Positions 17,805 through 27,966 of a DNA stretch of 64,000 nucleotides are shown here, piece by piece. Source of the DNA: Cyanobacteriota bacterium (GTDB taxonomy: Bacteria > Cyanobacteriota > Cyanobacteriia > Thermostichales > Thermostichaceae). The notes under the pieces are model-generated. The model saw only the letters and a list, made by a program, of their open reading frames with translations. It did no database searches and was not told where the DNA came from. Both the position numbers and the translations under genes were made by a program. The DNA is taken from NCBI GenBank assembly GCA_033764955.1, contig JANRIL010000040.1:74524-138523 (forward strand). Direction: 5' to 3'. Each line of letters begins with the position of its first letter. The stretch's first letter is position 1.

Positions 17805-18725
17805 ATGTCTACTTTAATGGCCAGCCATTTGCATAAAACCTATCGCTCTGGTCGGCAGCGCATCACCGCTGTTAATGATGTATCACTGACCCTCAAATCC
17901 GGTGAAATTTTGGCCTTTCTGGGTGCCAATGGAGCAGGCAAAACTACCACGGTCAAGATGATTGCCGGACTGATTCGACCGGATCGGGGACAGGTGCGGA
18001 TAGAAGGTAGGGATCCCTATCAAGACACCTCTGTTTTGGGATGGTTAGGAGCAGTTTTAGAAGGAAACCGCAATCTTTATTGGCGGTTGACTCCAATACA
18101 AAATCTAGAATATTTTGGTGTCTTGAGGGGGCTAAGCCAGAGAGTTTCTCGTCAACGGGCTGAGCAATTACTCGATCAATTTCAGCTAGCCCATAAACGA
18201 CAAACCCCTGTGGAAAAGTTATCGCGGGGGATGCAACAAAAGGTTGCCATTGCGGTGGCATTGATTCATCATCCCCCTCTGTTGCTGCTTGATGAACCCA
18301 CATTGGGATTGGATGTGGAATCAACCCAGCAGATCAAATCTCGTATCCGCGAAATTGCTAACGCCGGACAGTCCATTTTGCTAACCACCCATCAGCTTGA
18401 TATGGTGGAGACCCTGGCGGATCGGGTTTCGATTATTCATCGGGGAGAGATTATTGTAGAATCAACTCCCAAACAACTCATTCAACAGTTTTCTAGTGCT
18501 ACCTATCGCATTGAATTGGCAGAACCTTTAGATACGGAACGGATGATCAAGCTGCAATCCTCACAAGTCACAATTATTGACACACAAACCATTTCCTTTG
18601 CTCACACCCCTGAGAAGCTGTACCAAACCCTAGATATTCTCCGTCCTTTGCCTCTGATTCTTGTCAAAAAAGAGGAGGCCGACTTAACCCAAGTATTTTT
18701 GAAATTGGTGCGGGATCATGATTGA
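17805..18725 (+). CDS. ABC-2 type exporter ATP-binding protein
   Basis: GANGAGKTT, LSRGMQQK, LLLLDEPT. Confidence 0.92.
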   Translation: MSTLMASHLHKTYRSGRQRITAVNDVSLTLKSGEILAFLGANGAGKTTTVKMIAGLIRPDRGQVRIEGRDPYQDTSVLGWLGAVLEGNRNLYWRLTPIQNLEYFGVLRGLSQRVSRQRAEQLLDQFQLAHKRQTPVEKLSRGMQQKVAIAVALIHHPPLLLLDEPTLGLDVESTQQIKSRIREIANAGQSILLTTHQLDMVETLADRVSIIHRGEIIVESTPKQLIQQFSSATYRIELAEPLDTERMIKLQSSQVTIIDTQTISFAHTPEKLYQTLDILRPLPLILVKKEEADLTQVFLKLVRDHD

Positions 18726-19491
18726 GTTGTTGAAAGCGGAGCTAAAGCGCACATGGATTCAGTCTACTCGTTATCCCTTGGAGGCCTTGGGACGCATTTT
18801 TATTACTACCTGTTTTTTTTATGCCCTGTTTCTGGGATCCAAATACATCGCAGAACCTCCGGCCTCTTTTGGCAATCGTTTGGATAGTATCGTGATTGGC
18901 TATATTTTATGGACACTGGTTATTTTTATTGTCAATGATATTGCCATCACCCTACAAATTGAGGTGCAAACCGGAACTCTCCAACAGGTTTTACTCTCCC
19001 CTTATGAGCCAGTTAAAATTTTTTTGGCTCGCGCCTTAGCCAGTTTACTGTTAAGACTGACAACCATTATCACCATTTTGCTAATCATCTTGGTTTTAAC
19101 AGGTAGCCAACTGGCTTTTCCAATTTCGCTCCTGTTGCCGCTTCTGAGTGTCATTTTAGGAGCCTATGGTCTGGCTTTTATGATGGGATCCCTAGCGGTT
19201 TTATTGAAGCGTATTCAACAACTGTTGGTGATTCTGCAATTTGGGTTGCTGTTTCTTTTGGCAACCCCCATCGAAGACTGGCAAGGGATCCCTGCCCTGC
19301 TGGGGCTATGGCTGCCGATGACTGCCGGGGCGGGTTTACTCAGACAGGTAATGGCGCAGGGTATGGCGCTAGACGGATTCCGTGCGGGGTTGGCCTTATT
19401 AGTGGGATTACTCTATTTCATTGTGGGGTTGGCTTGCTTTCGTTGGGCGGTCAATCATGGCAAGCAACAGGGAAATCTGGGAACCTACTAG
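18718..19491 (+). CDS. ABC-2 type exporter permease
   Basis: About 6 TM helices, EVQTGTLQQVLLSP motif, overlaps the ATPase stop. Confidence 0.88.
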   Translation: MIELLKAELKRTWIQSTRYPLEALGRIFITTCFFYALFLGSKYIAEPPASFGNRLDSIVIGYILWTLVIFIVNDIAITLQIEVQTGTLQQVLLSPYEPVKIFLARALASLLLRLTTIITILLIILVLTGSQLAFPISLLLPLLSVILGAYGLAFMMGSLAVLLKRIQQLLVILQFGLLFLLATPIEDWQGIPALLGLWLPMTAGAGLLRQVMAQGMALDGFRAGLALLVGLLYFIVGLACFRWAVNHGKQQGNLGTY

Positions 19492-19795
19492 GTTGTGTTG
19501 ATCTTTCGCTTTCACTGCTCAATTTCGTCATATTTTTGGGCATCCGTTGGTCGTTTTTTTCATCCCTAGAGCTACTCTCTAAGTCTTGCCATAGTCTAAA
19601 ATCCCGCTTCATCATCTCGACTTACCCCTGCTCCATCCGCCAGGGATCCCCAAGTTCCTTGAAGTGTGTTCAAGAATACCTCAGCTTTTGTGCTCTATTA
19701 AGAATTACCACAGTTTTTTTTCAAAGAGTACCTGAGTCTGATACCTTGTGGGCAGTTCAGAAAAGTCTCTGATTTCTTCAACTCATTTTCTAAAG

Positions 19796-22366
19796 ATGGG
19801 ATCCCTTTTCCGCAGAATGACTCACTATTTGTTGTTGGGATCCCTATTGTTGGGTTTGCTTGCCTGTGGCTCAGACACCCCCAGTACCCTAACCACTCCA
19901 GGGGATCCCGATACCACTCAGGTTTGGTTTGAAGGGGATCCCACGACTTTTGACTCGACCGATGCCGCCATTGCCTTTGGGATTGCGGTGCTCAAAGAGC
20001 CTCCCAACTCAATAGCCAATCCTGTCAATGACCAAATTCGGGTGGAGGTGGAAAGTCGGTTTGGTATTTCTCTGAGTGAGCAACAACTCAATAGCAGCAA
20101 TGGCTTTGTCTTGGCTGCTGCCGATTTGGATGGCAATGGTCAGGTTAATTCTCAAGATGCGGCGGTGGCCTTTGCGGTGGCGGTGCTGCGAGAACCTCCC
20201 AACAATGTTGCTTGCCCATCTAAGGTGCAGGTGCAAACGGAGGTGGAGAGGCGATTTGGATTCTCGGTCACCTTACTCAAACCGATTCCTTGTTCGGGAT
20301 CCGCATTCCCCCCAGGGATCCCTAGTCCTGATGTGACACCCAGTGCAGAAGCAAGCGAACCACCCACCGGAACCATTCAAATTATTGGTGTGGAGGACAA
20401 AGATGGGATCCCGCTCACCATAGGCGAGACTCTTAGGTTAGAAGCGGTGGCTATCGATGCTGAGGGCAGGGATATTTCTCAGTGGATTGAGTGGCGCAAT
20501 CCTCAAAATCAGGTGATGGGGAGAGGAGCCGTTCTGGATTATCCAGCCAATAGTGTGGTCATGGAAACTCTGACGGCGCAAATCGGGGAAGACCAAAGTA
20601 AAGCTCAGACTGGGATGGCTTCAGCCAGAGTCAGTTTTACGGTGTCTACACCAGAGGCGGTGATTGCTCCCCATGTCAAAGTCTTGCCAGAACAAGCGCA
20701 AGAACAGATTTTGCTGCTCGATTTTGAGAAGGGGTTGCTGCAACTAGCCGACATCTCTGCTCTGCCGACACTGCGAGTTGGGGATGTCGTGTTGGGGGCT
20801 GGAGTCGAAATTCCTCCCCATCGGATTAGCCAAATCGAGGCTCAAGATGGCACCCTCTCCTTGACCATGCAGCCTGCTTATCCGCAAGAGGTGATTAGGC
20901 AAGGAAAGATTTCCCAATGGCAGCAGGTGAGGCTTGATAGTCAAGGCAAGCTGGAAGCACGCTCTCCCCTCACCGCCAAAGCAGGCTGTGCCGGAGCTAT
21001 CACCAAAAGCCTCGACCTGCCGATCTATTCCCAAGCAGCGGTGGGAGTGGGTGTGCAAGTCAACAATTCAGTCAATGGGTTTCAGGCGGTAGAGAGTCAA
21101 CTGACCACCAGTTTAGAGGTGAGAGGAATTGCTGAGGTTAGTCTATGTCCTGTATTTGAGCCACCCACGATTGAGTTTAACGAAGAGGGGAATCTCTTTT
21201 CGGGTATCCGCCGTTTTGCGATGGGGGCAGGGGTAGAAGATATTACGGCACAGGCTTATCTACAAATGCAAGGGTTGTTGGAATGGGGATTTATCCGGCG
21301 GATCCCGACTCCGGCGATTAGTTTGGTGACGACACCCACGTTTTATTTGGGGCAGGTGGGGCCAGTGTCGGTGTGGGTGAGTTTTGAGGCATTGGGACAT
21401 TTTCCGGTAGAAGCGGGGGTGAGCTTATCGGCAACGGGAGTGAAATTGGGGGTGGGGTATGGGGGAGGGAGTTATCTGCAACGGATCACTTATCAGGATG
21501 AGGGAGAGAGTGGGAAATGGGAAAACACTTCGGAATCGAGTTTGGGAACATTCAGTCCCATTTTGGAAGGAGATATTGACTTAGATGGCTATATACAAGT
21601 GGGGTTTAACCCAGAGATTGAGACCAGTTTATGGGGATCCCCGCCTGGGTTATCGACAGCGAGATTAAAGCTCTTTGTTTTGCCGAAGATAGGGCTGAAC
21701 TTTTATGTGAGGGGGGAGGTTGAGCTACTGCCAGATGAGATTGGGGTGGAGATAGAGCAACCTCAATCGGGCACTACATTGGCAGGGAATGAAAGTATTG
21801 CCCTGAGGGCAAGAGCAAGTGGAGATCCAAAGCTGACTTTGTTGGCGGGAGTAGATTTAACCCTCCGCGATGGTTCTGTAGAAGATGGGTGTTCTTCTTC
21901 CTATGGAGCACAAGAAAACCAAGATAATGAGTACACTCTTCTATTAGAAGTGCAACCTTGTTATCTACAACCAAATGGTCGCCACTGGTTTAATAAAATT
22001 AGTGGTAGTAGCCCCTCTAAAGATAAAAATACTGTAATGATGCCCGACATAGATGTTTATAATGATGTGTCAGAAATAAATGAGGGAAAGACACCTAAAG
22101 TTCAAGGGATTTTTACACTGTCTAATGGGAGAAAATATTCATCTGAAACAACATCAGCAGGATATCGACTTGTACCTGAAGAAGGCCCAGGTTTCTTTCG
22201 GATGGATAGAGGTGCGTATACAGCACTTACCATCATCAAGAAATATCATGGTATTACAGAGGCTGCATTAAATGAAATAAACCTAAATCCAGGCATAACA
22301 GATAGTCAAAGGGATGAAGCAATTACAGTTTATGAACTTGGAGTGAGCTTAGGAGGCAAGCCCTAG
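19796..22366 (+). CDS. Large lipoprotein with dockerin-like and Ig-like domains and a variable C-terminal tip (putative polymorphic toxin carrier)
   Basis: LLAC lipobox (start 19796 or 19817); duplicated DSTDAAIAF..LKEPPN / DLDGNGQVNSQDAAVAF..LREPPN repeats; Ig-like segment; abrupt switch to AT-rich sequence after 21882. Confidence 0.75.
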   Translation: MGSLFRRMTHYLLLGSLLLGLLACGSDTPSTLTTPGDPDTTQVWFEGDPTTFDSTDAAIAFGIAVLKEPPNSIANPVNDQIRVEVESRFGISLSEQQLNSSNGFVLAAADLDGNGQVNSQDAAVAFAVAVLREPPNNVACPSKVQVQTEVERRFGFSVTLLKPIPCSGSAFPPGIPSPDVTPSAEASEPPTGTIQIIGVEDKDGIPLTIGETLRLEAVAIDAEGRDISQWIEWRNPQNQVMGRGAVLDYPANSVVMETLTAQIGEDQSKAQTGMASARVSFTVSTPEAVIAPHVKVLPEQAQEQILLLDFEKGLLQLADISALPTLRVGDVVLGAGVEIPPHRISQIEAQDGTLSLTMQPAYPQEVIRQGKISQWQQVRLDSQGKLEARSPLTAKAGCAGAITKSLDLPIYSQAAVGVGVQVNNSVNGFQAVESQLTTSLEVRGIAEVSLCPVFEPPTIEFNEEGNLFSGIRRFAMGAGVEDITAQAYLQMQGLLEWGFIRRIPTPAISLVTTPTFYLGQVGPVSVWVSFEALGHFPVEAGVSLSATGVKLGVGYGGGSYLQRITYQDEGESGKWENTSESSLGTFSPILEGDIDLDGYIQVGFNPEIETSLWGSPPGLSTARLKLFVLPKIGLNFYVRGEVELLPDEIGVEIEQPQSGTTLAGNESIALRARASGDPKLTLLAGVDLTLRDGSVEDGCSSSYGAQENQDNEYTLLLEVQPCYLQPNGRHWFNKISGSSPSKDKNTVMMPDIDVYNDVSEINEGKTPKVQGIFTLSNGRKYSSETTSAGYRLVPEEGPGFFRMDRGAYTALTIIKKYHGITEAALNEINLNPGITDSQRDEAITVYELGVSLGGKP
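21559..21882 (+). repeat. Direct repeat copy 1 (~324 bp) immediately before the carrier tip
   Basis: Matches 23200-23523 at offset 1641, about 15 mismatches by manual alignment. Confidence 0.97.
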
Positions 22367-23127
22367 TGGAGATTTTTATTGATAAATATCCATCACTAAT
22401 TGAGATTGAGCAAGCTTTAGCTGAGCTACTTAAAGTTGATATCTCTCAGGTTGCAGCTACTTTGAGCTTCTCGGAATATTTAAAAACGAATAAGATTATT
22501 CCTCCTGTTGTTTGTGAAATAAAAATGGTTTCTGGGAATTTTTCTTGTTGTGTTTACCTACATCTACCTATTGAAAAAAATAAGGAGAAAGTCCTTGAGG
22601 TTATAGGTGGACTGTGTGAAATTCTAAATTGCAGGGCAATGATTTCTTATCGCGTTGGAAATTCTGGAGTTAAGATGTATTTATTTCTATCAAGGAGGGA
22701 ATACTATAGAATTGCAATTATGGATGATGAAGAGTATTCAATTTGGCAACAAGTTTTAGAAATCTTAATTGAAACCCCTCCGATAGCACTAGATTTAAAG
22801 AATATTTTATCTGAATCTATGTGCTTGCCAAAAGATAATTTTTTTCATGAAGATGATTGGCATAAAACTCTTTTGTCAAGAAAAGTTATTTACTCATATT
22901 ATAATTCTCATCAAAAATCTTCTGGCAATCTTTGTCTTTATATTCCTACAAATCATAGGTTTCTGAATCCATATAATGAGATGGAAGTTGCAAAGAATAT
23001 ATCGAGAAAAATACAATGCAGAATTGCTATTCAGGATCTTTCAATAAATGAGAATGAAAGATTATGCTTTGATCCGTTAGTTAATAGTATAACTGTTATT
23101 CCTTTGTCTGAAATCACTGGTCAATGA
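22366..23127 (+). CDS. Putative immunity protein for tip 1, two internally repeated domains
   Basis: GTG start overlaps the carrier TAG; AT-rich; the halves resemble each other (MEIFIDKYP..IEQALAE..LCEILNCRAMI / LEILIETPP..LKNILSE..ISRKIQCRIAI). Confidence 0.65.
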   Translation: MEIFIDKYPSLIEIEQALAELLKVDISQVAATLSFSEYLKTNKIIPPVVCEIKMVSGNFSCCVYLHLPIEKNKEKVLEVIGGLCEILNCRAMISYRVGNSGVKMYLFLSRREYYRIAIMDDEEYSIWQQVLEILIETPPIALDLKNILSESMCLPKDNFFHEDDWHKTLLSRKVIYSYYNSHQKSSGNLCLYIPTNHRFLNPYNEMEVAKNISRKIQCRIAIQDLSINENERLCFDPLVNSITVIPLSEITGQ

Positions 23128-23199
23128 GATTTTTATATTGACAAATGAGAGGGTATTTTATTGTTTCTCGTGTGAGCAAAATGACTGATGAACTAGCCT

Positions 23200-23523
23200 C
23201 ATTTTGGAAGGAGATATTGACTTAGATGGCTATATACAAGTGGGATTTAACCCAGAGATTGAGACCAGTTTATGGGGATCCCCGCCTGGGTTATCGACAG
23301 CGAGATTAAAGCTCTTTGTTTTGCCGAAGATAGGGCTGAACTTTTATGTGAGGGGGGAGGTTGAGCTGCTGCCGGATGAGATTGGGGTGGAGATAGAGCA
23401 GCCTCAATCGGGCAGCACATTGGCAGGGAATGAAAGTATTGTTCTCAGAGCAAGAGCGAGTGGAGATCCAAAGCTGGCTCTATTGGCGGGAGTAGATCTA
23501 ACCCTCCGCGATGGTTCTGTAGA
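23200..23523 (+). repeat. Direct repeat copy 2 heading the orphan cassette
   Basis: Near-identical to 21559-21882. Confidence 0.97.
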
Positions 23524-24088
23524 GGAATGTTCAGATTCTCAGCCTAGTTCCACATCTGCTTTGACAACTAAAAGAACATTACTTAATACAGCTACAGGAG
23601 GAGTTAGCTATAAGGGAATATGTGAATGTAAGCAGGTTTATGTTAGAGATGGAGTTGATTTAGCTACAGTTCCAGAACCTCCTAGTCTTCCACCGTTACC
23701 AAGACATACAACATGTAATACTCATGGACAAAATACTAGAGATACAGGAGGAGTCAACTCTCGAAAAAAATGCTACGCAGGTAGCCCATTTGAGTCACAT
23801 CATATTATTCAAGAAGCTGCGGTTAAAGGTATTAATGGCTACCCTACAAGTAAATCGACCAAAGCCTATACAGTTCTGTTATCTCCATCAGATCATCAAA
23901 AAGCAAATGCAGCTCAACCTCGCCCGCGACCAGCGGGAACCTATAGTAGTGAAAGAGACATTGCAATAAATGCATTGACAGCAGCAAACCTTCAGGGTGA
24001 TGAGGTTACAAAACAAATTGAGTGTGCTGACACTTTCTTTTATAGTCTTGGATTTCAGGATGATACAATTACCAATGCCGTAAATTAA
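23204..24088 (+). CDS. Orphan toxin cassette: carrier repeat plus Tox-SHH-like HNH/EndoVII nuclease tip
   Basis: No in-frame ATG or signal peptide and an in-frame TGA at 23189; tip has FESHHIIQEAAV..GY..A.TVLL..H..AN..Q..GTY..ER.IA. Confidence 0.72.
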   Translation: MEGDIDLDGYIQVGFNPEIETSLWGSPPGLSTARLKLFVLPKIGLNFYVRGEVELLPDEIGVEIEQPQSGSTLAGNESIVLRARASGDPKLALLAGVDLTLRDGSVEECSDSQPSSTSALTTKRTLLNTATGGVSYKGICECKQVYVRDGVDLATVPEPPSLPPLPRHTTCNTHGQNTRDTGGVNSRKKCYAGSPFESHHIIQEAAVKGINGYPTSKSTKAYTVLLSPSDHQKANAAQPRPRPAGTYSSERDIAINALTAANLQGDEVTKQIECADTFFYSLGFQDDTITNAVN

Positions 24089-24107
24089 CTTGTGGAGAAC
24101 TCTTAAA

Positions 24108-24602
24108 ATGACACAGGATCAAGATCAAAGCTGCAAAACGATAGAACTGTCTAGCCTCGTTCCCATACTCAAAGAATTAGCTCATGATATCGTCAATAGA
24201 AACTTCGAGAAACTGCTTTCAAAGAATCAAATAGAACCAGAAAACTTAGACTATATGACTCAAGCTCTAGATAATTATGCTGGGACTGCTGTAGAACCTC
24301 CTGACACAGAAATATATCGAGCAATTGGACAGATGGCTCAATACACACTAAGTAGTTTCATGGCAAATGAGATACCTAACTATGAGGAAGACTATGAGTC
24401 TTACACTAAGCAAGATATTGATAAGATGGTTGTTACTATAGATTTACCCAGTTTACCCAGTCTTTATATTGAATTATTGCTTGAGCCTAGCCCAACAGAA
24501 AAAAAAGAAAAGCATATTACGACTGCTATATGTGTTTGCATAGATGTTTTCCTATCAAATGATAGATTCTCAGTAAAAGCTAACTACATGTATATTTCTT
24601 GA
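24108..24602 (+). CDS. Putative immunity protein for the SHH tip (paralog A)
   Basis: Acidic, AT-rich gene right after the toxin tip; ATG 24108 aligns with the start of paralog B. Confidence 0.7.
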   Translation: MTQDQDQSCKTIELSSLVPILKELAHDIVNRNFEKLLSKNQIEPENLDYMTQALDNYAGTAVEPPDTEIYRAIGQMAQYTLSSFMANEIPNYEEDYESYTKQDIDKMVVTIDLPSLPSLYIELLLEPSPTEKKEKHITTAICVCIDVFLSNDRFSVKANYMYIS

Positions 24603-24673
24603 TGGAATGCATTGACACTTTCTTTTATAGTCTTGGATTTCAGGATGATACAATCACCAATGCCATAAAATAA
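24602..24673 (+). pseudogene. 23-codon remnant of a variant SHH-toxin C-terminus
   Basis: MECIDTFFYSLGFQDDTITNAIK* versus the cassette tail IECADTFFYSLGFQDDTITNAVN*. Confidence 0.85.
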
Positions 24674-24692
24674 CTTCTGGGGGACTCTTAAA

Positions 24693-25190
24693 ATGACACA
24701 GGATGAACATCAAAACCGCAAAATGATAGAATTGTCTAGCCTCGTTCCCATACTCAAAGAATTAGCTCATGATATCATCAATAGAAATTTTGAAAAACTA
24801 ATTTCGCAAGATCAAATAAGACAAGAGAGAGTAGACTATATGATTCAATCTCTAGATGATTATGCTGGAACTGCTGTAGATCCTCCTGACACAGAAATAT
24901 ATCGAGCAATTGGACAGATGGCTCAAGGCACACTAGATAATTTCATGGTAAACGAGATACCTAAATATGAGGAAGACTATGAGGCTTATACCAAGCAAAA
25001 TGTTGACAATATGGTTGTTACTACAGATTTACCCAGCCTTTATAGAGAACTATATATCGAATTATTTCTTGAGCCTAACCTAACAGAGAAAAAAGAAAAG
25101 CATATTACGACCTCTTTACGTGTTTGCATAGATGTTTTCCTGTCAAATGATGGATTCTCAGTAAAAGCTACCAACATGTATATTTCTTGA
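24693..25190 (+). CDS. Putative immunity protein (paralog B)
   Basis: About 75% aa identical to 24108-24602 by manual count. Confidence 0.7.
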   Translation: MTQDEHQNRKMIELSSLVPILKELAHDIINRNFEKLISQDQIRQERVDYMIQSLDDYAGTAVDPPDTEIYRAIGQMAQGTLDNFMVNEIPKYEEDYEAYTKQNVDNMVVTTDLPSLYRELYIELFLEPNLTEKKEKHITTSLRVCIDVFLSNDGFSVKATNMYIS

Positions 25191-25290
25191 TGGCATTATG
25201 AGTCTAATACTCTTGTCTGCTGGGTAAAGAGCTTTGCTTAATAAGCTTCTGATTCGTAATTATCATTTACTATAATCTTCCGAAAATAAC

Positions 25291-27966
25291 ATGAAAAAGA
25301 CTTTTCTTTTCTTTGATGAATCTCTAATAACTACCTTTTCCCCTTTTCAAAGACTTATGCAAAATCTAGGACTCCTCTGTGGAATTTTGCTGCTATTTTT
25401 GATCACCAGTTGTGGCTCTAGCACCTCCTCTACGATTGCTCCTGCTGCTGCCTCCGATTCTTCCCCTCTCCAACTGTCCCTAGAAGTTCCTCTCCCTGGT
25501 TTTGCTTCCCTAGAGGTTCCCCTTATCCAAGCAAGTGAGATCTTGTCTGTGGATATCCCCATCTATAGCGCCCACTACCCCATCATCTGGAGCAGTAGTG
25601 CTAATCCAGACCAAGTGATCGCCCAATCTCGCTCTCAACTAACCGTCTCTCCGGATCCCTGTGTCATCCCCAGCGCAGGCAACCACACCCTGACGGCGAC
25701 TGTCTTCAATCCCCTCGACTTTGGCCTCTATTTCCCCCTTGCCACTACGGCTATTCCCATTACCCTTGACCCTGGTTGTATCAGCCTCTCCATTGAGTCG
25801 GTTGCTCTGCCCGCTACGACTAACGATGGCACTCCCGAATCTCTCAAAGTTTGTGTGGCGCTAGAAGATGCTGATGGCTCCCTCCTCCTCGATGAAACCG
25901 GCAATCGTCCGGCAGTCTCACTCTTGTTTGAGCCACAATCAGGTACGGTTGACCCCGCAACAGGCAGCACAGATAACCAAGGATGCTTCCGTACCACTGC
26001 CACCCTCACTCAAAACCTGGGGACGTTCCAAGTCAAGATCACGGCTGAATACCAACCAGAGCCAAATAATTCCTATACGCTGACCGCCAGCGATAGTGCC
26101 CAGATGAGGGATCCCTGTGATGTCAGTGACCCCGCCGAGAAACCCTTTTGCACTTGTGAAGCAGGTTCCTGTCCTTCTCCCTCTCCGGATCCCTCTCCGG
26201 ATCCATCACCTAATCCCTCTCCTAATCCATCCCCATCGCCACCGCCTCCATCCCCACGACCTAGTCCACCTCCTTGTTCTAACTGCACTCCAGGCGGTAG
26301 TTGGGGTGAGCCTCATGTCTATACCTTTGACCGCCTTGCCTACGATTTCCAATCGATTGGGGAGTTTGTGCTGGCTGCTTCCCTCTACTCCGATTGGCAA
26401 ATCCAAGGGCGTCAAACCTATTGGCTTCCCAAAACCCGTCAAGTGGCTATCAACCAAGCCATGGCCACTCGTCTCGGCTCCACTCGCCTGATGATTGATG
26501 CTTTTGCGGACATCCCCCTCTGGCTAGACGGTCAACCCTCTCCCCTCCAGGATGGACAACTGCTCACCTGGGAAGATGGTTCTGCTCTCTACTATGACCT
26601 TGATGAGCGAAAGGGCAGTGGCTGGCACACCTACCGACTGATTTGGCCGGATGGATCCCAACTGCAAGCTCAAGTGCGGGGGATCAATGGCATTGATCAA
26701 GGTGAAGCCCGTTTCTTAGATCTGACATTACACTTACCTGCTCAGTTAGCAGGCTCAGTACGAGGATTATTGGGCAATTTCAATGGGGATCCCCAGGATG
26801 ATGTGCAAACTCGTCAGGGAGAAGTGTTGAGTGGGGTGCTCTCCTTTGAGCAGATCTATCAAAGTTATGCCAACTCTTGGCGGATTTCCCAGGCGGAATC
26901 CTTGTTTGACTATTCACCTGGGGAAAGCACAGCCACCTTGACTGACCTCAATTTCCCCCAGCAATATGTCAGTGCCAGTACCCTGCCAGAGGAGGACTAT
27001 CAGGTGGCTCAAACCGCTTGTCAAAGCGCTGGAGTGCCAGAACTATTGCTGTCAGATTGCATTCTGGATGTAGCACTGACTGGGGATCCCAAACTGGCTA
27101 CGGTGGCAGCAGAAACGGCAGCAAGCCTTGGCGCAGAAAATTTACCCACGGCTAGCTTGGGGGTGATCACTCCCACCACACCAACTCCTGGCTACCTGTT
27201 GTGGGGCATGACTGCTGCTGGAGCCGATATCATCGCCATCACCGACACCGCAGAATTAGTGCGGATTAACCCCCAAGGAGAGATTGGGTCGATAGCGTCT
27301 GGGCTGGTCAATAATTTCACCTTTGTGGCTGGGCTAGAGGAAGATTTCATTGTGGCCTCGCCCAGTGGTTATCCGCCGCTGCGGGTGACGCCCACGGGTG
27401 AGGTGACTCCCTTCATTAGCTTTGCCGTGAGCGAGTCAGGGCCTTGGATTGAATTGGTGCGGGGATTAGCTTCCCAAGGGTCATCGGTGTGGATGACGCT
27501 CAACTCTCAATATGTGGGGGGATCCCTCCAGAGCCGCCAGAGTCCTTATGTTTTACCTGTGGGATCCCATCTGGTGAGGGTGAATGAGCAGGCAGAGGCA
27601 ACGACACTATGGTCTGACTTGGAGGATCCCTATGCTTTGGGGGCGGTGACGGTGATGGGAGAGGAGGTGGTTGTGGTGAAGGGCAATCAGCTCCTCAAAA
27701 TCTCTCCGACAGGACAGGCAAGAGAATGGGTCAGTTTGGATTTTGTGGCGGCGGTGCAGGGGTTGGTGGCTGGGTCGGATAGGCTGTGGTTACTTGGTCA
27801 GCCCAGCTATGGATCCCCTCCTTCCCTCTGGCGGATTAGCCCTGATGGGGAGGTGAGTCTTTTGCTGGAAGGGTTACCTCAGATCGGTGGCATGACCCTC
27901 CTCAAGACTGACTTGATGTTGGCAGACCTCACCCACCGCCAACTGCTGCGGATCTTTCAACCCTAA
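25291..27966 (+). CDS. Lipoprotein with Ig-like, Pro/Ser linker, von Willebrand type D and C-terminal beta-propeller-like domains
   Basis: ITSC lipobox (start possibly 25357); GSWGEPHVYTFD..YDFQSIGEFVL and GLLGNFNGDPQDD VWD motifs; PSP repeats; TATAAT at 25271. Confidence 0.8.
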   Translation: MKKTFLFFDESLITTFSPFQRLMQNLGLLCGILLLFLITSCGSSTSSTIAPAAASDSSPLQLSLEVPLPGFASLEVPLIQASEILSVDIPIYSAHYPIIWSSSANPDQVIAQSRSQLTVSPDPCVIPSAGNHTLTATVFNPLDFGLYFPLATTAIPITLDPGCISLSIESVALPATTNDGTPESLKVCVALEDADGSLLLDETGNRPAVSLLFEPQSGTVDPATGSTDNQGCFRTTATLTQNLGTFQVKITAEYQPEPNNSYTLTASDSAQMRDPCDVSDPAEKPFCTCEAGSCPSPSPDPSPDPSPNPSPNPSPSPPPPSPRPSPPPCSNCTPGGSWGEPHVYTFDRLAYDFQSIGEFVLAASLYSDWQIQGRQTYWLPKTRQVAINQAMATRLGSTRLMIDAFADIPLWLDGQPSPLQDGQLLTWEDGSALYYDLDERKGSGWHTYRLIWPDGSQLQAQVRGINGIDQGEARFLDLTLHLPAQLAGSVRGLLGNFNGDPQDDVQTRQGEVLSGVLSFEQIYQSYANSWRISQAESLFDYSPGESTATLTDLNFPQQYVSASTLPEEDYQVAQTACQSAGVPELLLSDCILDVALTGDPKLATVAAETAASLGAENLPTASLGVITPTTPTPGYLLWGMTAAGADIIAITDTAELVRINPQGEIGSIASGLVNNFTFVAGLEEDFIVASPSGYPPLRVTPTGEVTPFISFAVSESGPWIELVRGLASQGSSVWMTLNSQYVGGSLQSRQSPYVLPVGSHLVRVNEQAEATTLWSDLEDPYALGAVTVMGEEVVVVKGNQLLKISPTGQAREWVSLDFVAAVQGLVAGSDRLWLLGQPSYGSPPSLWRISPDGEVSLLLEGLPQIGGMTLLKTDLMLADLTHRQLLRIFQP

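Follow-up and report, generated by a model that had tools for sequence, protein, structure and literature searches.

Why should an array of toxin and immunity genes start behind one part of what looks like a single protein domain, and give way at its far end to a second lipoprotein that seems to open with the other part? The question is raised by a locus in a 64,000-nucleotide (nt) stretch, henceforth referred to as the window, of contig JANRIL010000040.1 from a Cyanobacteriota bacterium of the Thermostichaceae. In our numbering the locus lies on contig C47, a second locus of the same genome lies on contig C44, and the genomes of relatives are coded G002-G022. The upstream gene encodes a lipoprotein with a C-terminal toxin (the carrier) and the gene downstream of the array a lipoprotein with a VWD domain (the partner). 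We propose, with a probability of about 0.55, that a polymorphic-toxin locus is embedded here in a fissioned surface-lipoprotein gene, and that the two halves dock with the toxin hanging from a former loop. The cut probably lies within a composite immunoglobulin-like (Ig-like) domain, the two parts of which are called half 1 (carrier) and half 2 (partner) below. To a more specific version, in which the array was inserted in a permissive loop of an adhesin's Ig domain and the two lipoproteins reassemble by split-domain complementation with the toxin displayed internally, we give even odds. The genes and segments on which the argument turns are the following (ORF, open reading frame; aa, amino acids):

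19748..22366, plus strand: toxin-carrier lipoprotein gene from the ORF list, 872 aa from a GTG start
21559..21886, plus strand: homology block copy 1, carrier residues ~605-712, common to the orphan cassette and ending right after RDGSVE
21743..21883, plus strand: putative half 1 of the composite Ig-like domain, GVEIEQPQSG...GVDLTLRDGSVE, residues 666-712, from sub-threshold Big_7 matches and the conserved junction
21884..22366, plus strand: Cys-bracketed linker (DGC...PCY) and toxin 1 (160 aa); no Pfam family, only a weak BA_2335-like match
22366..23127, plus strand: presumed immunity gene for toxin 1, a 253-aa ORF directly after the toxin
23200..23527, plus strand: homology block copy 2, including half 1, in the orphan module
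23204..24088, plus strand: orphan toxin module, homology block copy 2 followed by toxin 2
24090..24602, plus strand: presumed immunity gene 2a, a 170-aa ORF
24693..25190, plus strand: presumed immunity gene 2b, a 165-aa ORF, duplicate of 2a
25291..27966, plus strand: partner (VWD) lipoprotein gene, 891 aa, matching the C-terminal part of single-chain homologs
25510..25779, plus strand: putative half 2 of the composite domain, LEVPLIQ...IIW...GNHTLTATV...IPITLDPGC, residues 74-163, from hhalign against single-chain homologs and the partner alignment

One chain in relatives, two genes at the toxin locus

The original prediction had suggested that homologs might exist in which carrier residues ~1-700 and residues ~60-891 of the VWD protein form one polypeptide, and such homologs were found. 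Word-indexed homolog searches had returned four relatives for the carrier and ten for the partner (the latter sharing the VWD part only) and no fused form; the fused forms emerged when 61 genomes (the window's own and 60 relatives) were scanned with a profile built from the partner's N-terminal 255 residues. The profile matched 11 of the 61, the window's own genome included, and in five of them the match fell within frames of 1657-1957 aa. The genome G014, from the same family, encodes a single-chain lipoprotein of 1934 aa onto which both window products map:

carrier residues 187-690 to residues 253-766 of the G014 protein, BLASTP E 4e-32
partner residues 108-603 to residues 838-1326, BLASTP E 1e-50
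mature partner residues 34-238 to residues 778-990, hhalign profile-profile comparison, probability 99.3, E 1.6e-20

The two products are thus collinear and non-overlapping on one homologous polypeptide, of which only ~6-12 residues are left unassigned at the break (carrier to ~766, partner from ~778). In the MAFFT alignment the partners' LAIDLDIPGF... stands opposite ...FKQIDLG-RFEF of the G014 protein. Relative to the single chain, the extra material at the split locus consists of the toxin, the immunity genes, a second leader and a low-complexity linker of ~20-35 residues. Because the mapping is collinear and so little is left over, the two window genes are, by homology, a partition of one single-chain protein.

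The G014 protein carries no toxin and continues into VWD (with a GDPH motif) and leucine-rich repeat (LRR) modules. Other single-chain frames, of 1657-1757 aa, were found in G022, G017, G018 and G002, and further examples are the metagenome proteins P0036 and P0047; the G002/P0047 type is a more distant form with several Big_1-like repeats in place of the VWD domain. When a hidden Markov model of the partner N-terminus was run on 161 collected proteins, half 2 formed the extreme C-terminus of P0042, P0043, P0044, P0049 and P0112, with a half-1-like segment 75-100 residues upstream in the same chain; in P0043 the window's homology block matches residues 827-918 (E 7e-9) and the partner residues 1034-1063 (E 5e-5). 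Overall, three distinct single-chain architectures keep the order half 1, variable insert, half 2.

This homology replaces the resemblance by which the two half-units were originally recognised. The strings quoted for them, VEIEQPQSGTTLAGNESIALRARASGD (carrier residues 667-693, nt 21746-21826), IIWSSSANPDQVIA (partner residues 98-111, nt 25582-25623) and GNHTLTATV (partner residues 130-138, nt 25678-25704), are present where they had been placed. The extents of the half-units needed correction, in that the carrier unit runs past ...ASGD to RDGSVE and the conserved region of the partner begins ~24 residues before IIW, at LEVPLIQASEILSVDIPIYS. The likeness of both to the carrier's first Ig domain could not be recovered: when the partner N-terminus was compared with the carrier by hhalign, the probability was 0.3, and the by-eye Ig resemblance was dropped as evidence in favour of the single-chain homologs. 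That the second Ig-like unit of the carrier looks incomplete agrees with its matches to Pfam Big_7 (PF17957, a 70-position profile with a gathering cut-off of 24.1 bits), all of which are partial and below the cut-off: the whole carrier matches profile positions 3-54 (E 0.046, 14.8 bits), isolated half 1 positions 3-29 (E 0.01, 16.9 bits), the orphan module positions 3-44 (15.2 bits) and the carrier of L001 positions 3-33 (21.7 bits). Half 2 gave no Pfam match even at E<=10.

Judged from sequence, the window locus belongs to a polymorphic toxin family, with a conserved N-terminal carrier, a conserved junction and unrelated C-terminal tails. In full-length family members the junction reads ...GVDLTLRDGSVE, or a variant such as GIDFTLRDGSVEEC, GLDITIGGGELNNEC or GVDLTIGGGTEDEC, and is followed by unrelated tails of 100-190 aa; ...TLRDGSVE or a variant of it stands before unrelated C-termini in P0002, P0003, P0015, P0016, P0023, P0032, L001, L033 and L034. 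The two copies of the 328-nt homology block are 95% identical over their first 300 nt, and in a base-by-base comparison their identity stops directly after the RDGSVE codons (carrier residue 712, nt 21883). The window's second cassette shares the carrier's end up to the junction, as orphan cassettes of polymorphic toxin systems do, and the block is presumed to be a recombination handle for toxin swapping. Small ORFs follow each window toxin. For toxin 1 the pairing recurs in G004, where a 45% identical homolog stands behind the same junction and is followed by a homolog of the presumed immunity protein 1 (25% identity, E 1e-19). Toxin 2 has an SHH motif (ESHHII, 23792-23809) and a match to Tox-SHH below threshold (E 0.034), and its presumed immunity genes 2a and 2b form a direct repeat of 87-90% nt identity. 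The G+C content of the array is 0.34-0.42, against 0.53-0.56 in the flanks on both sides. In a promoter and terminator scan, nothing resembling a terminator separated the array from the partner gene, and nothing else decisive was seen.

In the tails inspected by eye a Cys follows within 2-6 residues of the junction, and in most of them a second Cys lies 5-30 residues further on, P0016 having just one. The Cys pair of the window linker (21884-21970) has equivalents in P0002, P0015, P0023, P0032, L001 and L013. By analogy with toxins that are nicked and then released by reduction, the pair could form a disulfide-bracketed linker.

Gene order in relatives and the direction of change

Half 1 and a toxin lie upstream, on the same strand, at seven of the nine split-type partner loci (C47, C44, G010:C206, which is the contig of L001, G010:C204, G004:C360, G003:C12 and G013:C59). 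The remaining two, G002:C3 and G005:C33, hold partner fragments of 123 and 98 aa, and the carrier is absent from the DNA examined. Behind the arrays of G010 (two loci), G004, G003 (820 aa) and G013 lie partner frames of 39-46% identity, intact or open-ended, each with its own lipobox as judged by eye. The displaced remainder, with its own putative leader, is retained in at least four genera. By eye, the lipobox reads ITSC in the window (Cys at residue 41, nt 25411-25413) and LTSC, LTGC, LVSC, LNGC or ATAC in partner homologs.

The paralogous locus on C44 (L013 6171-10561, minus strand) comprises an 836-aa carrier with a NucA/NucB toxin, a ComJ-like ORF and a broken partner. The carrier ends in a NucA/NucB DNase domain (E 6.9e-7) with the ComJ-like ORF next to it, and the partner has one TAG and a deletion of residues ~441-778 (~338 residues). 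The linker of this broken partner (CDVSDPAEKPFC..SPSPDPSPDPSPNPSP) is nearly identical to that of the window copy and its last 91 residues are 93% identical, which suggests, at the level of sequence, gene conversion between the two partner genes. At the G003 locus another carrier-like gene, with a CBM2-like N-terminus, begins right after the partner gene (L033 14768-15001), and because the two adjoin, a tandem arrangement of such loci is possible.

The broken C44 partner, together with the short fragments that stand without carriers in G002 and G005, could be taken to mean that the partner is a degenerating leftover without a role today, and that carrier, toxin and immunity protein are the only functional parts. 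We consider this very improbable, given that the window copy has an unbroken frame of 891 aa, leader included, and that the lipobox-bearing frames behind the arrays in G010, G004, G003 and G013 point to long-term retention.

The shared core (28 rows, 525 columns) was then placed in a quick, unrooted IQ-TREE phylogeny, in which a single branch (Shimodaira-Hasegawa-like approximate likelihood ratio test, 99) separates the 10 single-chain rows from the 18 rows of toxin or unknown type. Such a tree needs one change only and, having no root, would equally suit a history in which the two-gene state is ancestral, in the manner of MafB with MafA, and the single chains arose once by in-frame deletion of the toxin, the immunity genes and the second leader. 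One deletion of this kind is mechanistically easy, and lipoprotein partners beside polymorphic toxins are known from MafA/MafB (PMC3482391). We nevertheless hold fission to be considerably the likelier direction, and fusion to be improbable, for four reasons. If half 1 and half 2 make one fold, as the complex prediction suggests, two half-folds are unlikely to have arisen separately. The single-chain side holds three downstream architectures, all with half 1, insert and half 2. The G+C of the array is foreign, lying well under that of the flanking genes as expected of inserted cassettes. Finally, the partner's leader and the low-complexity linker behind it have no counterpart in the single-chain forms. 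The original proposal, that a single adhesin was interrupted by toxin cassettes and its remainder gained a leader of its own, therefore holds as far as collinear homology goes, but on the direction of the change the tree gave it no polarity.

Predicted docking of the two halves

Reassembly of the two lipoproteins had been offered as an alternative to simple interruption, and it passed a controlled complex prediction. Carrier residues 580-689 (in the numbering of the 849-aa database form) and mature partner residues 18-128 were modelled together with custom alignments, and the interface score ipSAE (interaction prediction score from aligned errors) was 0.65, 0.54 and 0.66 in three runs, whereas the best of three controls reached 0.00. 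The predicted interface has 212 contacts, 181 of them confident, with a predicted local distance difference test score (pLDDT) of at least 68 for the partner, and the runs agree in at least 88% of the contacts. It involves carrier residues 642-681 and mature partner residues 36-53, 56-60, 70-98 and 110-124, and includes the IIW and HTLTATV segments. The closest predicted pairs set carrier I646, L663 and A665 against partner W60, L94, A96 and I115, and carrier T653-L655 runs along partner I117-L119. From these models we infer that the carrier would supply A/A'/B-like strands to a core made of the partner's Trp, F and G strands, and a physical association of the halves is predicted.

Several observations weigh against this reading. 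Of 157 solved complexes 116 reach the scoring mark, as do 2 of 215 mismatched pairs; the mark was calibrated without user-supplied alignments and is only a rough guide here. For half 1, the Ig assignment depends on Big_7 matches that fall below threshold. In an AlphaFold2 model of residues 249-994 of the G014 protein, the Ig domains at both ends are confident, the composite region (461-630) has pLDDT 42-68 and the break falls in a loop with pLDDT <50, so the single-chain model gives no independent confirmation of one domain as opposed to two neighbours. Mature partner residues 36-53, a conserved strand-like segment before the IIW segment that also takes part in the predicted interface, could provide the partner with its own first strands. 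The intact C44 carrier beside a broken partner indicates that a cis partner is dispensable or is supplied in trans. Lastly, the tree shows one event without polarity and fits fission or fusion.

Some of these points would be expected if the genes were split and the domain was not. The cut would then fall in the linker that joins two beta domains, each able to stand by itself: half 1 would be a small pre-toxin domain that packs on the carrier core, and the partner N-terminus a complete Ig-like domain; association in trans would be weak or absent, and the partner would act as an independent adhesin. The low-confidence loop at the break and the intact C44 carrier fit this account, the strand-like segments LEVPLIQ and ILSVDIPIY could be the partner's own A and B strands, and half 1, with ~46 residues and four predicted strands, could lean on the core. 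We nonetheless think it unlikely. It does not lead one to expect a large and confident interface that is lost in the controls and sets the carrier against the partner's Trp and F/G-strand residues, nor the occurrence of half 1 and half 2 together in three single-chain architectures in which only the insert varies. A self-sufficient domain is also at odds with the partner N-terminus folded alone, which, modelled with three sequences, has pLDDT <50 for residues 1-53 and 47-69 for residues 54-120, against 75-94 for the next domain.

According to the explanation that we prefer, a fissioned adhesin with docking halves, the ancestral chain would, like the lipoproteins of 1650-1930 aa in related cyanobacteria, have consisted in this order of an N-terminal anchor module, an Ig-like domain, a beta-rich core, the composite Ig-like unit, an intimin-like Ig domain and distal binding modules (VWD and LRR, or others). 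It would have been cut inside the variable insert, leaving an upstream gene that ends in half 1, a Cys-bracketed linker and a swappable toxin, and a downstream gene in which a new lipoprotein leader and a short linker precede half 2 and the rest of the protein. Both lipoproteins would be exported, and half 1 and half 2 are predicted to dock as one beta-sandwich, which would re-create the ancestral adhesin with the toxin on a former loop; the distal VWD and beta-rich part would then give contact with the target, followed by toxin delivery. Half 1 would thus serve both as docking piece and as recombination handle. Since it sits inside the recombination block, each swapped-in toxin would keep the docking piece, and any such toxin would be coupled to the same targeting module.

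Other parts of the two lipoproteins, known systems and meaning

The remaining domains of the two proteins are as follows:

20375..20584, plus strand: first, complete Ig-like domain of the carrier, IQIIGVEDKDG...ETLTAQI, residues 210-279, located in the 872-aa frame
25780..26124, plus strand: complete Ig-like domain of the partner, Big_1/intimin type, pLDDT 75-94, weak Pfam Big_1 match
26176..26300, plus strand: Pro/Ser-rich linker of the partner, preceding the VWD domain
26308..26826, plus strand: VWD domain, PF00094, 36.4 bits and E 7.9e-9 against a 22.9-bit cut-off
27190..27963, plus strand: C-terminal beta-rich domain of the partner, no Pfam match, also in the G003 partner

In its database form (P0001) the carrier begins at the ATG at 19817 and has 849 aa, compared with 872 aa from the GTG; its lipobox, found by eye, is LLAC at 19856-19867. 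Its order is a two-repeat module (FEGDP..FDSTDAAIAF), the first Ig-like domain, a beta-rich core, half 1 and the C-terminal toxin. At least four further lipoproteins of this genome (L006-L009) carry the two-repeat module (19928-20330; FEGDP..FDSTDAAIAFGIAVL.EPPN...RFG) behind their lipobox, and their C-terminal parts are mutually unrelated (a Gly/Ser/Thr/Asn-rich repeat protein, a beta-propeller-like tail and others). Pfam gives just a weak dockerin match for the module (E 0.053), which looks like a lineage-specific anchoring or sorting module. The equivalent of the first Ig domain in the model of the single-chain homolog has pLDDT ~90 and matches Ig/FN3-type chains at Z ~10 with a root-mean-square deviation (rmsd) of 2.2-2.6.

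The core (~20650-21730) is modelled as ~10 long beta strands of 13-25 residues each at pLDDT 60-87 (model m22c8ebbbab24, residues 249-464). It has no relative in Pfam, among PDB sequences or in the Atlas (nothing >=0.9). Foldseek with the model of the single-chain homolog returned generic multi-Ig matches only (template modelling score ~0.1), the VIA-align rows covered just the two well-folded flanking Ig domains and not the core, and the PDB sequence search matched only CBM2 modules, brought in by other family members. From 1.84 billion representatives, the core profile retrieves 279 proteins of the family at E<=1e-3, with 40 of them reaching E<=1e-30. Many short matches begin inside the last ~100 core residues, like orphan modules (for example P0040, P0046 and P0050). 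On a contig of Synechococcaceae cyanobacterium SM2_3_2 (L002 9785-12061), the likeness of a 758-aa lipoprotein to the carrier is confined to the first Ig domain and ~180 residues after it; its middle and C-terminus differ, and a small ORF lies behind it. This protein may represent a further type of carrier within the superfamily.

The genes immediately before the window carrier, on the same strand (17805-19491), encode an ABC ATPase and an ABC-2-type permease. The pair is absent beside the C44 carrier, and its link to the toxin system is doubtful for that reason.

The Big_1-type domain that follows half 2 resembles intimin and invasin: in the homolog model its equivalent matches intimin D00-D0 (6tqd_A) at Z 11.2 and rmsd 2.2 over 98 residues, and intimin (1f02_I) at Z 10.6. 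Unlike in intimin and invasin, no inverse-autotransporter barrel family was found by Pfam or PDB sequence search; a membrane barrel of that kind is conceivable for the beta-rich core. In animal proteins such as mucins and RGM, the GDPH motif of VWD domains is an autocleavage site, cut at its Asp-Pro bond. The window partner shares with them a PF00094 match above threshold, but differs at this site, which reads GEPH (26305-26316) in the window and GDPH in the C44 paralog, the G014-type proteins and the G003 partner. By analogy, the window partner may not cleave if the Asp-Pro bond is where autocleavage takes place.

In chaperone-usher pili, incomplete Ig-like pilins are completed by the donor strand of another chain. 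The predicted complex is similar in that an Ig-like fold left incomplete in one chain would be completed by strands of another; it differs in that pili use one strand between like subunits, whereas in the predicted complex two different proteins, born of a gene break, would each provide about half of the sandwich.

Polymorphic toxin systems with orphan cassettes include the CdiA-CT, Rhs-CT and MafB types (Zhang et al. 2012, PMC3482391). The window locus is like these in its conserved carrier, its sharp pre-toxin junction, its unrelated C-terminal toxins each followed by a presumed immunity gene, its downstream orphan module that repeats the last ~110 carrier residues, and its low-G+C cassettes. 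It is unlike them in that the carrier appears to be of Sec/lipoprotein type with a lineage-specific N-terminal module and in that the junction probably lies inside a unit whose remainder starts a second lipoprotein after the array, the relatives having one protein and no toxin. The nearest analogy is MafA of Neisseria, a non-polymorphic lipoprotein beside the polymorphic toxin MafB that has been proposed to hold MafB at the cell surface. Unlike MafA, which is upstream and was never part of MafB, the window partner is encoded after the entire array and matches the C-terminal half of the single chains collinearly. A full-text literature search found no description of such an arrangement and none that pairs polymorphic toxins with strand complementation; among the matches listed for polymorphic toxins and gene fission, all concerned Rickettsiales or Wolbachia genomes, going by titles and the openings of abstracts.

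Polymorphic toxin loci are commonly pictured as a carrier gene to whose 3' end cassettes have been added; at the window locus the cassettes occupy the interior of what relatives have as one adhesin. Should the halves reassemble, a toxin could be grafted on an existing surface adhesin while the distal binding modules are kept, which would explain why half a domain sits inside the recombination block and would make the two proteins a natural split-domain docking pair. To our knowledge, little work has been published on contact-dependent antagonism in cyanobacteria, and reassembly of the halves would offer a concrete model for it. If true, this would be a two-chain architecture for contact-dependent toxins not described before, and a route by which ordinary adhesins are turned into toxin carriers.

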